Assembly (NCBI RefSeq): GCF_000027125.1
Contig: NC_017626.1
From: Escherichia coli 042
GTDB taxonomy: Bacteria > Pseudomonadota > Gammaproteobacteria > Enterobacterales > Enterobacteriaceae
Direction: 5' to 3' (one strand)
Length of the DNA stretch: 64,000 nucleotides
The position numbers were made by a program, and so were the translations under genes. How positions within the stretch are numbered: position 1 is the stretch's first letter; each line of letters starts with the position of its first letter. The notes under the pieces were generated by a model. That model was not told the origin of the DNA. It saw only the letters and a program-made list of their open reading frames with translations, and searched no databases. Below are positions 5,180 to 20,795 of this stretch, one piece after another.

Positions 5180-5199
5180 TTTAAATAACAAAATCCTAA
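5180..5199 (-). promoter_or_regulatory. gad box (GadE/GadX binding element) of the gadBC promoter
   Basis: + strand tttaaataacaaaatcctaa is the exact reverse complement of the 20-bp gad box consensus TTAGGATTTTGTTATTTAAA; it lies 80 to 99 bp upstream of the gadB ATG. Confidence 0.85.
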
Positions 5200-13896: not shown

Positions 13897-15579
13897 TTAT
13901 TTCGCTTCGCTTAGTGCTTTCTTGATATTGTTAAACTTCTCCTGATTTACCTCGCTAAGCGGTGGCTGGCTGCTGTCGATAAACTCTCTTACCACGCCTT
14001 GCATCTCTTTAACGACCTGTGGATTGGCGGCGGCAAGGTTATCTTTTTGCTGTAGATCCGTCAGTTTGTATAGACCTAACTGATTGTTTTCTACTGTATA
14101 GACAAGCGAATAATCGTTATTTCTCACCGTATAAGAGAATTGGCTTAAGTCCTCGGTATTGGGGTTATGCGGGTAATCGTCTGACTGATGGCGGACAAAT
14201 TTGTGGTAATTATCCCAGAATGGAATATTTTCCTCGTCAAACCAGTGAGAATAAGAGGTTATCCAGGTCAGATTTTTATGTGGCTCGCCTTGTTTCTTAT
14301 CTTGCAACCACGGCAGCAAGGAAACGCCATCCAGCTTAAGGTCTTTTGGAATGCTGATATCGGCTGCATCAAGAGCTGTCGGGTAGAAATCCATTGCGGA
14401 AATCAGCTTGTCATAATTACCTGGTTGAAGTTTTCCTTTCCACCACATAAACATTGGGGTGTGAGTACCGCCAGGATAAGTCTGACTCTTATAGCCTTTT
14501 TGCGCCCCGTTCAGCGGCAGAGGACCATCGATAACCGCACCATTATCGGAGGTAAAGAGAATAATAGTATTGTCATACTGTCCGTTTTTCTTCAGTTGTT
14601 CGAGAATGCGTTTTACACCCTGATCAACAGAATAAACGGAAGCGTAGTAGTTATCTGCTGTTTGACTACCGGTATTAAATTGCTTCTGATATTGCTCCGG
14701 TGCAGGATTATCATTTGGCAGGTGCGGAGCATTATAAGCCAGGTAAAGCATAAAAGGCTGGTCAAGTGTTTTGGCACGATCAACAACGCCAATTGCCTCA
14801 TCGGTTAACTGATCGCTGATATAACCTTTTGCGGGGACGCGTTCACGATTTTTGAACAGTGAAGGGGAGTTGTAATATGCCGTTCCTGCAGCGTGGAATC
14901 CCATAAAGTAATCAAAGCCACGGTTTTGAGGTTGCCATTCTTCCGCAGAAAATGTGGTGAAGTTGTCATGATAGTCACGCGTTTGTTTATCTTCCGGTAC
15001 TGGCACATTACTGATTTTTGACAAGTGCCATTTACCTACTGCTGCAGTGTAATAACCATGATTCTGGAATAATTCAGGCAAGAAAGTTTCTGTTAGCGGA
15101 ATACCATCCTGAGCATCGGTATTGGAATAGACACCAAAGCGGGCGGGCGCTCGACCGGTCATTATTGCGGCGCGGGAGGGGCCGGAAACACCGTGCGCCA
15201 CATAGCCGTTAGTAAAACGTACGCCTTCATCCATTAATGAAAGGAGCGTCGGCGTTGATTTTTGCGCAGCTTCAATGGCTTTATCTATCCCTATTTTGTA
15301 GGTATCGACAACTTCACGATTTTCCATTGTTTTTGGGTCAAAAGATTCCTTATCAAAAGGAAGTTGTCCATAACCAAGATCATCCATGGTCAGTACGATA
15401 ATATTTGGCTTTCCTTTGGTACTGTATTCAGTCGGCGTAAAGTCTGAGAAAGCAACGTTTGTTTTGGTTGCTTTCAGCTTTACATCATCTGCCGCATGAG
15501 CAGCAAATGCAGCCATACCAGATGCCAGTATCAAAGATATCGAGGTACTTACGACACTTTTCTTTAATGCAGACTTCAT
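13897..15579 (-). CDS. ydeN: Ser-type sulfatase YdeN (secreted)
   Basis: Signal peptide then sulfatase signature S-G-P-S-R-AAIM-TG (Ser type, needs a maturase); start taken at MKSALKK. Confidence 0.85.
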   Translation of the reverse strand: MKSALKKSVVSTSISLILASGMAAFAAHAADDVKLKATKTNVAFSDFTPTEYSTKGKPNIIVLTMDDLGYGQLPFDKESFDPKTMENREVVDTYKIGIDKAIEAAQKSTPTLLSLMDEGVRFTNGYVAHGVSGPSRAAIMTGRAPARFGVYSNTDAQDGIPLTETFLPELFQNHGYYTAAVGKWHLSKISNVPVPEDKQTRDYHDNFTTFSAEEWQPQNRGFDYFMGFHAAGTAYYNSPSLFKNRERVPAKGYISDQLTDEAIGVVDRAKTLDQPFMLYLAYNAPHLPNDNPAPEQYQKQFNTGSQTADNYYASVYSVDQGVKRILEQLKKNGQYDNTIILFTSDNGAVIDGPLPLNGAQKGYKSQTYPGGTHTPMFMWWKGKLQPGNYDKLISAMDFYPTALDAADISIPKDLKLDGVSLLPWLQDKKQGEPHKNLTWITSYSHWFDEENIPFWDNYHKFVRHQSDDYPHNPNTEDLSQFSYTVRNNDYSLVYTVENNQLGLYKLTDLQQKDNLAAANPQVVKEMQGVVREFIDSSQPPLSEVNQEKFNNIKKALSEAK

Positions 15580-15981
15580 AAATGTTCCTCTTCTTATTGT
15601 ACTTAATTCCAAAGTAATTTTACGAAGAGAAATAAGTGAATGTAAGTGAAGTTAGTCACATAAAGAGATAGCAGATTTAGCTAAAAAAAGGGAAATAACA
15701 GTCCATGAAGCGTTGACATTACTTTCTATTCTACTAAGTAATTTCTCGACGATAAACAACTAATCTATTGATATTTAATAAATTATTGTATTTTACTGAC
15801 AAAATGCCGAATTGAGATCATAAATAATCATGCAACAGGTTATGCAAATGCATAAATATGTGATGAATGTCACTTATTTATTTCAATAAATATATCGCCT
15901 AAAAACAACGCGGGGCAGGGAATGGCTGCCCCATTTTAATTTTTACGTAGGGTGCGTGGTTGACTACTCGTTAGCAAATAA

Positions 15982-16743
15982 TCAAATAGCTAAAGCATTC
16001 ATCGTGTTGCCCTTATTCATACCCGTGTGCCTTTGACAACGGTACTCCTTAGAAACTCTCTTTGGACTGTTGCCAAAATGTTTGCGGAACGCATAAATAA
16101 AATAAGATGTACTCGCATAACCACATTGTTCGGCAATTTTATTGACTGAACCTTCTACGCGTATCAAATTTTTTGCGTGCTGCATTCTGGCATCTAAAAG
16201 AATCTGTGAGAATGTCGTTTGCTCTTGCTTTAGTTTTTTCTTCAACAGGCTTTCACTAATGTACAGGCAGTCACAAATATCTTTCAGCTTCCATGGGTGC
16301 GCCAGCTTCATGTTGACAATATTTCTAACTTTCCCAGAAACGGATAGCACACCGTTAGTTAATAGTGTAATGAAACCTTTGCATGCGGCAAAAATAGACA
16401 GGCAAGAAAAAAGCAAAAGTTCTGAAAAATTATGATGATTGCGTTCTTCCGAGTTGAGATAAGCAATCATTTCATTAAGCAATCCAGTCGGTACATTTGA
16501 AGCACGTAAAAACTTCGCAGGAACAGGCACCGTCACTGTCTGGATGTTAGTGCATTGTAGATATTTTTTAATGGTATTTTCATTAAATCCGATTTCTTTG
16601 AAATGCCGCTCATAAGGTTCAAAATGCGTACGAACAGCGTTATCTACCATCAGGATCTCGCCGTCAGAGAAGGCGTAATCTTTATCTAAAATGTTAGCGT
16701 TGAAGGCATGATGAATAAATATAACAGAACAAACGAGCGACAT
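15982..16743 (-). CDS. ydeO: AraC-family acid-resistance regulator YdeO
   Basis: 253-aa ORF with C-terminal AraC-type HTH; immediately downstream of safA. Confidence 0.88.
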   Translation of the reverse strand: MSLVCSVIFIHHAFNANILDKDYAFSDGEILMVDNAVRTHFEPYERHFKEIGFNENTIKKYLQCTNIQTVTVPVPAKFLRASNVPTGLLNEMIAYLNSEERNHHNFSELLLFSCLSIFAACKGFITLLTNGVLSVSGKVRNIVNMKLAHPWKLKDICDCLYISESLLKKKLKQEQTTFSQILLDARMQHAKNLIRVEGSVNKIAEQCGYASTSYFIYAFRKHFGNSPKRVSKEYRCQRHTGMNKGNTMNALAI

Positions 16744-16817: not shown

Positions 16818-17015
16818 TCAGTCTTGCAAACTATTGATAATGAAATGTGTAAGATCCCTTGCAATGCGACCCATTTCTGAAATACCCAGCTGATCAATTG
16901 CCGAAAACATGGCTATCAACGTAAGTGTCAGTAATAAGACAACCACAATTACAGACATGATTTCTTTATAGTTGTCTCTTTGCGTGATTTTGTTTTTCAC
17001 TGTGGTCGCATGCAT
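16818..17015 (-). CDS. safA: Two-component connector SafA (B1500), small membrane protein
   Basis: 65-aa ORF MHATTVKNKITQRDNYKEIMSVIVVVLLLTLTLIAMF… with one TM helix; position upstream of ydeO. Confidence 0.8.
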   Translation of the reverse strand: MHATTVKNKITQRDNYKEIMSVIVVVLLLTLTLIAMFSAIDQLGISEMGRIARDLTHFIINSLQD

Positions 17016-17126
17016 TTCAAATATGTTTATTTAGCGGATAACGTTAAAAATCGTTAATCAGTATGCTTAATATAACAGGCTGGAGAATAGAGGAAATAGG
17101 ACTGGCGCTTCAGTACTGAGCGGAGT

Positions 17127-17144
17127 TTCTTACAGCTGTAGGCG
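17127..17144. promoter_or_regulatory. EvgA box upstream of safA-ydeO
   Basis: TTCTTACAGCTGTAGGCG matches the EvgA inverted-repeat consensus TTCYTACA-N2-TGTARGAA (first half perfect); about 112 bp upstream of the safA ATG. Confidence 0.7.
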
Positions 17145-17262
17145 GAGGTATATATCTTATAACGAGCAGTTTAATTTAGCACATGTGAGTAAATTGCGCG
17201 ACAATGGTCAATGAGGAATTCTTCTGCTGTGCGGATGACAGCAGAAGAAATGAGGAGGCGAA

Positions 17263-19542
17263 TTAATTTGATGGTTCTAATTCAACCGGAATACTTTTAT
17301 AGCCAGGAATGCCACTTAATGGATCGTGGTTATCAAGTGTTAGCATGTGATTCGATTCTGGAAAATAGGTCACCAGTGAGCGGTCAGCCATAGGGTAAAT
17401 GACCACTTTTAATCTATCCATGCGGCGTGAGCTTCGCTTACCGTCTGGCGTAAGCGCAATAAGATTAACTCTTTCGCCGTTTTTTACACGGCAAATTTTA
17501 GCTTGTTTAGCACTCATAAAGACCACATCTCGTTGACCGAATACCCCTCGATAGCGATCATCCATACCATAAATCGTCGTGTTGTACTGATCGTGACTGC
17601 GTACTGTCGCCATGACTAGCTTACTGTTAAACGCTGAAGAGGGATCTTCTAACAGCCCTTTACTGGTAATGAAATTAGCCTTACCTGACGGCGTCATCCA
17701 GCGCCTTTCAGCAGCTGCATTTATCAGGTGAAAACCACCGGGATGACGGATGCGCTGGTTATAGTCGGCGAACTCTGGCAGCACAGCTTCAATGTCATTG
17801 CGAATGCGATCATAATCTTCCACCAGATACTCCCAGGCTACCACGCTCTGGGGTAGTGCAGCCTGCGCGATTCCCGCGACCACTGCACACTCTGATTTCA
17901 GCATTACACCGGCGGGTTTTAACACGCCACGCGAGGCATGAATCATCGACATTGAATCCTCAACGGTTACCGCCTGCGCACCACTTTTTTGCATGTCAAT
18001 CTCGCTACGTCCCAGAACCGGCAGAATATAGCTATGCTGTGCGGTCAGCAGATGAGAGCGGTTAAGCTTAGTGGCTACGTGTACCGCCAAATCTAATTGC
18101 GTTAACGGTACAGCGCTCGCTTCCCGATCTGGCATTGCCAGTGCAAAGTTGCCCCCCATGCAGATCAATGCTCGAGCCTGCCCCGTACATATTGCTTGCA
18201 TGCTGGCAATTGCAGCATGTCCAGGTGCATGAGGTGGGGTGAAACCATAGCGCTCACCCAGGCGAGCCAGAAACTCTGCAGACGGTTTCTCGGTGATACC
18301 GACGGTTCGGTCGCCCTGTACATTAGAGTGACCACGTAGTGGGCAGATACCTGCACCAGGCTTGCCAATGTTACCTTTCATCAACAGCAGATTGACCAGT
18401 TGCTGTACGTTTTGGGTACCATGTTCGTGCTGAGTGATCCCCATTCCGTAACAGATAATGGTGCGTTCGGCAGCGGCATATGCATCAGCCAGTTCGGCGA
18501 TTTGGGTCTGACTTAGTCCAGAAATACGTTCGATATCTTTCCACTCGGAATTGAGAACGTCACGGCGTAGCTCGTCAAAGCCGACGGTATGCGTTTGAAT
18601 AAATTCGTCATCCAGCAATGAGGGCCGACCTGCGGCGCTTGCAGCATCATCGCGCTCAATTAACAGGCGCATCATCCCCTTGAGCAACGCCATATCGCCA
18701 CCAATGCGCACGTTATAGTAGGCACTGGCCAACTGAGTCTCAGAGTTCGTCAGCATTTCAAACGGATTTTGCGGTGCGGTAAATCGCTCCAGGCCACGTT
18801 CCTGTAGAGGGTTGATGGCGATCATTTTCGCTCCCCGTTTCACTAAAGCGCGCAACGAAGTCAGCATGCGAGGGTGGTTTGTACCAGGGTTATGCCCAAT
18901 GCAAATGACTAAATCGCATTTCTCAAAGTCTTCCAGCAACACGGTGCCTTTACCCACACCGATACTCGCTGCCAAACCCACGCTGGTCGGTTCATGGCAC
19001 ATGTTGGAACAGTCGGGAAAGTTATTGCTCCCGTATTCACGGGCAAAAAGCTGATAAAGAAAGGCAGCTTCATTGGAAGTGCGCCCCGAAGTATAGAATT
19101 CAACCTGATTGGGATCACTATAGCTTTGAAGGCGTGCGCCTATTTCGTCGAAAGCTTGTTGCCAGCTTAATGGCTTGTAACAGTCGCTGACGGCATCATA
19201 TTTCAAAGGCTGAGTGAGACGCCCCGCAGCTTCAAGCTCGTGATCTCCCCAGGTAAGTAATGATTGAACCGTATTCTCAGCAAAGAAAGAGGCATTTACC
19301 TGCTTATCCGTGACTTCCCAGGCGATTGCTTTTGCGCCGTTTTCACAAATGTCGAATGACGCACTGTGCTTAGGATCTGGCCATGCACATCCAGGACAGT
19401 CAAAGCCCTCTGGCTTATTCATGTCAAACATGGCAATAACATCCTGGCGTATATCCATCTGCTTACGTACTGCATTCGCTACGGATTTAACAGCACCCCA
19501 ACCACCGGCAGCACCCTGGTAGGATTCAATTTTTTTCTTCAT
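17263..19542 (-). CDS. ydeP: Molybdopterin-family oxidoreductase YdeP (acid resistance)
   Basis: 759-aa ORF with N-terminal Cys cluster (CPGC…C) typical of formate-dehydrogenase-like molybdoenzymes. Confidence 0.88.
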
Positions 19543-19790
19543 CTGCTTATCCTGTGTGGAAATGAATTATTAGGATTTGTAATAGCGATGATGCACAGTA
19601 TATACAAAGGGATTATCGTCAATATGGATATATAAGAGTAGGGGACTACTCTCTATCTATTTTTAACCTATTATCGTTAAATAATAGAATGGTATAAATA
19701 CGATAAGTTAAGCATCATCTCTCATAGTGTTTAAATTAACATATTTTTCAATATAAAAAATAAGACTCTGGCTTCAATTGTGCGCGGATT

Positions 19791-19808
19791 TTCTTACAGG
19801 TGTAGGAT
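19791..19808. promoter_or_regulatory. EvgA box upstream of ydeP
   Basis: TTCTTACAGGTGTAGGAT matches the EvgA consensus at 15 of 16 defined positions; about 250 bp upstream of the ydeP ATG. Confidence 0.7.
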
Positions 19809-19880: not shown

Positions 19881-20795
19881 TTATTCATAGATAAAAGTGA
19901 CACCAATGACTGACTGGACGGTTCCGGCTGAAACCTTGTTTCCTGTTTGTCCATAGGTTGCGCTTAAACCCAGAGGTACTTTGCTTTTATTTACTGTCCC
20001 CAGGGAGACATTTTCTCCCGTAGCCAGTATTTTTCCATTACGCATCAGAGAGACACCCACTCCCGATGCTTTTGTCGCATCAGGTGCTGTGTTAGCAAAC
20101 ACTTGTCGGGCACTGTCAGTGGTGGCACCCGAAAGATAAAATGAGAGCTTTTGTTCGCTTGAGCAATATACGCCAAGGGGTATTTCTGCGCTTCCAGGAA
20201 AGTCCGGGAGATTCACGGTGACATTACGACTATCAACAGTGCAGCCGCCTGTTGGCATAACAACACTGTTATTTGAAATAATATTCCACGTAAAATTACG
20301 CGGATTTCCGCTTCCTAACGTGGCAATTTTATACATATGAATACGGGCAATGACTTCCCCCGCTTTTATGACAACTCCACCGGCTGCACCAACTGGGGTA
20401 ATATAGAGTTTTAACGGTAATGGCATCGGTGTCTTATCACCAATATCCAATACGTTGGTATTTGTCGTCAACGGGAAGGGGTAGGTTACATTATTCCAGT
20501 ACAGCGATCCTTTATATGACTGTAGGGAGCCTGCGAAAGCTGAGCCTTGTACCAGGTTTATATGATCGGTGTCGTACCAGCCGCCGTAATCATTCCAGCA
20601 ACTTATATGCTGAGACAAGTCTACAACCAGATTCTGGCCCGGTTGTATTACAGGGTCGAGATTAACATAAACAGAGGTTGTACCTGCTCCAATACTTGAC
20701 CCGCCATCGACATTACAACTGAAGGCAAAAACTTTGCCTGCCATTAATAGAAGATAAATACCGAACAGGACCTTTATACTGAATGTTTTACCCAT
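19881..20795 (-). CDS. ydeQ: F9/Fml-type fimbrial tip adhesin (FimH-like two-domain protein)
   Basis: 304-aa secreted ORF, last gene of the chaperone-usher operon; its C-terminal half resembles a pilin domain. Confidence 0.8.

Follow-up and report, generated by a model that had tools for sequence, protein, structure and literature searches.

An 18-bp inverted repeat lies upstream of safA in the 64-kb stretch of Escherichia coli DNA analyzed here (the window), and it raises the question of whether this repeat is the operator through which EvgA activates the safA-ydeO promoter. On the plus strand the repeat, which is EvgA-like in sequence, reads TTCTTACAGCTGTAGGCG (17127-17144). The surrounding genes are all on the minus strand. 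They are safA (16818-17015, ATG at 17015; 65 aa), ydeO (15982-16743; 253 aa, an AraC-family tier-2 regulator), ydeN (13897-15612), ydeP (17263-19542) and ydeQ (19881-20795), identified from open reading frame calls together with the names that RefSeq gives at near-identical E. coli loci. SafA, a small membrane protein, links EvgS/EvgA with PhoQ/PhoP. The repeat is located within the 247-bp spacer between safA and ydeP, and 112 bp separate its promoter-proximal edge from the safA ATG.

Comparison of the repeat with the EvgA consensus TTCYTACA-N2-TGTARGAA revealed agreement at 14 of the 16 specified positions. On the plus strand the left half, TTCTTACA, matches at 8/8 positions and the right half, TGTAGGCG, at 6/8 relative to TGTARGAA. 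Read on the sense strand, which is the minus strand, the box is CGCCTACA-GC-TGTAAGAA, with a perfect promoter-proximal half and a distal half that is degenerate at its two outer bases. The preliminary description had placed an EvgA box at this position, about 112 bp upstream of safA; the box is there as written, with an imperfect match that carries two mismatches. When up to three mismatches to the consensus are allowed, only two sites occur in the 64 kb, the safA box and a site at 19791-19808 upstream of ydeP, where 0.65-0.9 sites would be expected per window. At two mismatches or fewer the expectation drops to 0.07 sites per 64 kb and, calculated analytically, to 2.6e-4 to 4.5e-4 per 247-bp spacer.

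The preliminary description had also proposed a matrix scan of the window for further sites. A symmetric matrix made from five K-12 EvgA sites, with safA left out, put the ydeP box (25.2 bits) and the safA box (18.8 bits) in the first two ranks, far above the next 18-mer at 9.05 bits. With a promoter-oriented matrix, likewise built without safA, the safA box scored 21.5 bits (training sites, 20.0-24.3 bits) in the orientation facing safA versus 14.2 bits in the opposite orientation. Both matrices make for a partly circular test, in that the comparison sites were picked by consensus matching at operons known to be EvgA-regulated. Across both matrices, the next best unrelated sites in the window reached 9-11 bits.

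The second box, which had been posited at ydeP, is present at 19791-19808 on the minus strand (plus strand, TTCTTACAGGTGTAGGAT; sense strand, ATCCTACA-CC-TGTAAGAA), 249 bp upstream of the ydeP ATG, and is the sole other site within three mismatches. In K-12, the 20 kb around evgAS contain four sites within three mismatches versus 0.27 expected, all of them upstream of emrK/evgA, frc and yfdX (two sites), and yegR has a site with one mismatch. The boxes at ydeP, emrK/evgA, frc, yfdX and yegR share the 8-2-8 repeat of the safA box and, like it, combine a near-perfect promoter-proximal half with a looser distal half. It has been reported that an EvgA binding site is present at all genes known as direct EvgA targets (PMC4283999). 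No EvgA site within four mismatches was found in the K-12 gadE upstream region. An EvgA-like box with two mismatches, TTCTTACGCATGAAAGAA, is located inside the mdtE coding sequence of K-12 (L011:5887-5904). Small differences between the window and K-12 were also observed at the boxes and their leaders: the ydeP box of the window (…GGAT) is one base nearer the consensus than that of K-12 (…GGCT; L001:5797-5814), the safA box of the window is one base farther from it than its K-12 counterpart, and the ydeP leader is 5 nt longer in the window.

The box upstream of K-12 safA (b1500)-ydeO, TTCTTACAGCTGTAGGCA (NC_000913.3, 1,584,071-1,584,088), is the positional orthologue of the window box. The two are identical at 17/18 bases, with an equal spacer and an equal distance to the safA ATG; the single difference, G in the window and A in K-12 (K-12 half, TGTAGGCA), is at 17144, on the outer end of the promoter-distal half. 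Alignment of the spacer without gaps (301 bp) with K-12 and other strains yielded 11 distinct E. coli haplotypes. None of the 11 alters the sense-strand core CCTACA..TGTAAGAA; the only variable columns in the box are the N2 spacer (GC, GA or GT) and the outermost distal base. Variable columns account for 8/84 positions (9.5%) from the box to the predicted transcription start and for 22/74 (30%) from the ydeP hairpin to the box (Fisher p = 0.002), so that across the 11 haplotypes constraint sets in just where the safA box begins on its distal side. Among 5426 complete E. coli genomes, counts of exact 30-mers gave 517 (~9.5%) for the window G allele, a common minor allele, and 3832 (~71%) for the K-12 allele; the rest are probably N2 variants. 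The window is E. coli but not K-12: identity to the closest complete genome is 99.0% over 3.8 kb, whereas K-12 derivatives are only 92.7% identical across the spacer.

The G at 17144 is probably tolerated, because functional EvgA sites are least conserved at their two outermost distal bases. The symmetric matrix suggests a 5.8-bit penalty for the window allele. We read this penalty as an artefact of symmetrisation and set it aside, as the oriented matrix leaves the site in the functional range. A residual 3.8-bit drop is seen with the oriented matrix, because C at that position is absent from every training site.

To place the box relative to a transcription start, we calibrated the geometry on the ydeP 5' leader, given as -178 to +10 in PMC11210196. 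Other leaders in the same list start at known transcription starts (PMC11210196), and the gadE -21 start used there is confirmed by PMC3708157. Measured against this published start, the K-12 ydeP box is centred at -74.5, and the predicted ydeP start falls at 19725 of the window. Transfer of this geometry puts the predicted safA-ydeO start at 17061-17064 on the minus strand, and we infer that the safA box is centred at about -73.5 to -74.5. A predicted extended -10 element, TGtTATATT (17069-17077, minus strand), was assigned from the box offset; it is invariant in the haplotypes, and the offset from the box centre to the first base of its hexamer is 62 nt. Much the same offset, 61-63 nt, separates the box centre from -10-like hexamers at ydeP, emrK, yegR, frc and the proximal yfdX box. 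A simple sigma-70 scan of the spacer found no promoter, because the -35 of safA is poor, a result consistent with an activator-dependent promoter. The start-site supplement of Kim 2012 has no entry for safA, ydeO or ydeP. At 17088, between the -41 element described below and the -10, a window-specific T-to-A change relative to K-12 (sense TATTCT versus TTTTCT) creates a -10-like hexamer with a 4/6 match at an offset of 47 nt from the centre of the box; this hexamer is absent in K-12.

Anchoring an alignment on the boxes of six K-12 EvgA promoters (safA, ydeP, emrK, yegR, frc and yfdX) revealed positional conservation downstream of the box and none upstream. The shared positions concern 17016-17126 and 19725-19790 of the window (minus strand) and the K-12 loci L001, L009 and L012. 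Over 80 nt, the mean information content of the six promoters was 0.556 versus 0.379 at shifted anchors (P < 2e-4), and downstream positional conservation was also found among the four non-paralogous promoters (P = 8e-4). The conserved columns are a CA at about -57/-56, a G at about -47 and TCYTATT at about -41 to -34 (as TCnTATT, about -40 to -34). In the window this last element is TCCTATTT (17094-17101, minus strand), at about -41 to -34 from the predicted start and with fixed spacing; it is invariant in the 11 haplotypes. TCYTATT is offset by 42 bp, or four helical turns, relative to where the distal half-site starts, on the same helical face (P = 0.004 versus shifted anchors). Its scores as an EvgA half-site are weak, at no more than 2 bits per site and negative at 3/6 promoters, which leaves a third EvgA half-site as a reading of low probability.

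Within this set, safA and ydeP are the most alike: 27-28/40 bases after the box are shared between them, versus 15-21/40 for the other EvgA promoters. This similarity suggests that the safA and ydeP promoters are a duplicated module of common ancestry. The other EvgA promoters share with safA the offset of the -10-like hexamer and the conserved positions between box and -35; the safA promoter differs from them in its extended -10, and the downstream genes differ. Conservation downstream of the boxes could reflect extra contacts or simply common ancestry. If contacts are involved, the -41 element could be bound by an additional EvgA protomer or dimer, or it could be a contact for the alpha or sigma subunit of the polymerase. 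That the architecture common to EvgA-dependent promoters is fixed and extends past the 18-bp box is a tentative proposal that we consider rather unlikely.

The Bordetella BvgA promoters, such as fhaB, offer a comparison. BvgA is a related regulator that uses a TTCCTA-like inverted repeat far upstream of the -35, and at its promoters further low-affinity dimers reach to the -35. The safA promoter has positional conservation and a weakly half-site-like element at about -41, but occupancy by multiple dimers is unsupported. A single search of genome contigs with YdeO returned E. coli-type loci only, which precludes cross-species footprinting. This outcome is explained by the near-restriction of evgAS to E. 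coli, related systems being present in Bordetella and Klebsiella (PMC8174306). The diverged YdeO matches were deletion variants without safA and ydeP (L016-L019) or, in the case of L020, carried the window haplotype. In the deletion variants (GCA_011763255.1, GCA_014991665.1 and others) fimbrial genes are fused to an N-terminally extended ydeO, and ydeP, safA and both EvgA boxes are removed; these loci fit the natural safA-ydeO deletions that have been reported (PMC5706723). Two contigs labeled 'uncultured bacterium UMGS1713' and 'Candidatus Nanosynbacter MAG' (L013 and L014) carry 99%-identical E. coli ydeO, safA and ydeP together with the EvgA boxes, and probably represent E. coli contamination or mis-binning.

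Beyond the ydeP stop codon is a terminator-like hairpin (17219-17249, minus strand) with a 12-bp stem and a weak U tract, which sets the ydeP unit apart from the safA promoter. Its predicted folding energy is -19.6 kcal/mol (z = -4.63), and 0/31 of its columns are variable in the 11 haplotypes. The hairpin probably terminates most ydeP transcription, and some read-through into safA may occur. When the pH falls, EvgA activates the safA-ydeO promoter, which YdeO and PhoP repress (PMC5619816). A search for the PhoP box (TGTTTA-N5-TGTTTA) near safA returned matches with three mismatches only, and the window as a whole held 80 such matches versus 74 expected; a candidate PhoP repressor site near the safA start was dropped, as these matches are at chance level. 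Elsewhere in the window, an exact copy of the PhoP-box consensus, TGTTTAGTCGCTGTTTA, lies at 26517-26533 on the minus strand, in an intergenic region of the yde fimbrial cluster and about 227 bp upstream of a 203-aa open reading frame (25679-26290); the expectation for perfect matches is about 0.008 per window. A copy with one mismatch is found about 1 kb away at 25513-25529 on the plus strand. The window also contains a full-length match to the Rfam family STnc560, an Hfq-binding sRNA, at 58545-58757 on the minus strand (276 bits).

Three other explanations of the repeat were weighed. Given the 27-28/40 bases that safA and ydeP have in common beyond the box, the repeat might be a non-functional relic left by duplication of the ydeP promoter module, with safA-ydeO induced mainly by read-through from ydeP; the weak U tract of the ydeP hairpin makes some read-through plausible, and PMC11052181 refers to a 'ydeP-safA-ydeO operon'. 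A relic would not be expected to show the constraint seen in the box core and in the block from box to start, next to upstream DNA that is 30% polymorphic. Moreover, a response to EvgS/EvgA activation is seen with PsafA reporters in isolation (PMC5619816; bioRxiv 10.64898/2026.05.06.723403), and direct EvgA binding is stated in a passage of PMC9496106. We consider a relic with read-through very improbable. We give the same low probability to the possibility that the repeat chiefly serves another LuxR/NarL-family regulator, such as RcsB or GadE, with a preference for related TTCCTA/TAAGAA hexamers. The half-site hexamers do resemble those of relatives such as BvgA and RcsB, but the 8-2-8 layout is exactly that of the other EvgA targets, and the GAD box differs in sequence and occurs only at gadB in the window. 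In addition, the kinetics of PsafA are unaltered by deletion of GadE, GadX or GadW (PMC5619816).

Least probable of all is that the repeat is a chance palindrome, or an RNA hairpin without a role in DNA binding. Short palindromes do arise randomly, and with three mismatches allowed 0.65-0.9 sites are expected per window; at the two mismatches observed, however, only ~3e-4 are expected in the spacer. The predicted RNA fold of the box region is no better than that of shuffled sequence (z = +1.15), and no Rfam family matched in the safA-ydeP spacer. The statistics and the conservation pattern effectively refute this explanation. We place the probability that the 18-bp repeat is the EvgA operator activating the safA-ydeO promoter at about 0.93, a reading on which sequence, position, orientation, within-species constraint and the literature converge. 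We take the repeat to be the EvgA element reportedly footprinted at safA by Masuda & Church 2003 and Itou 2009.

Assuming the repeat is this operator, activation of the locus would proceed as follows. At mildly acidic pH, EvgS phosphorylates EvgA, and a dimer of EvgA~P would then occupy the 18-bp repeat, with one HTH for each of the 8-bp half-sites, set 2 bp apart. From about -74, EvgA would recruit or stabilise sigma-70 RNA polymerase at a promoter predicted to have the extended -10 TGtTATATT and no usable -35. The resulting transcript supplies SafA, which activates PhoQ, and YdeO, which activates gadE; GadE in turn acts at the GAD box of gadBC. EvgA is a NarL-family protein (PMC9496106), and the same source, with reference to Itou 2009, describes direct binding of EvgA to the safA-ydeO promoter.

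The preliminary description had further claimed that the window carries three tiers of the EvgA to YdeO to GadE cascade, including a GAD box at gadB. The GadE-type GAD box upstream of gadB, TTAGGATTTTGTTATTTAAA, is an exact 20/20 match at 5180-5199 on the minus strand and is the only one found in the 64-kb window, where even at three mismatches or fewer 0.02 would be expected. The claim of three tiers holds loosely, for the elements themselves, with two EvgA-box promoters as tier-1 outputs, the ydeO gene as tier-2 regulator and the GAD box of gadB as tier-3 output. It does not extend to the cascade as a whole, as evgAS, gadE and a demonstrated YdeO-box target are all absent from the window.

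EvgA control of safA-ydeO is already known, textbook regulation, and its operator is nothing new for biology. Established directly by the comparisons presented here are the match of the box, its non-randomness, its orientation, its orthology to the K-12 site, the pattern of polymorphism and the common promoter geometry. The added value lies in the spectrum of operator alleles, every one of which spares the core, and in the better conservation of the proximal half-site relative to the distal one. EvgA promoters also seem to have in common a fixed geometry at about -74, with extra conserved positions that could guide mutagenesis. Correct annotation of the safA box matters for reading this locus, as both the EvgA to YdeO to GadE cascade and SafA, the connector from EvgS to PhoQ, are entered through it.
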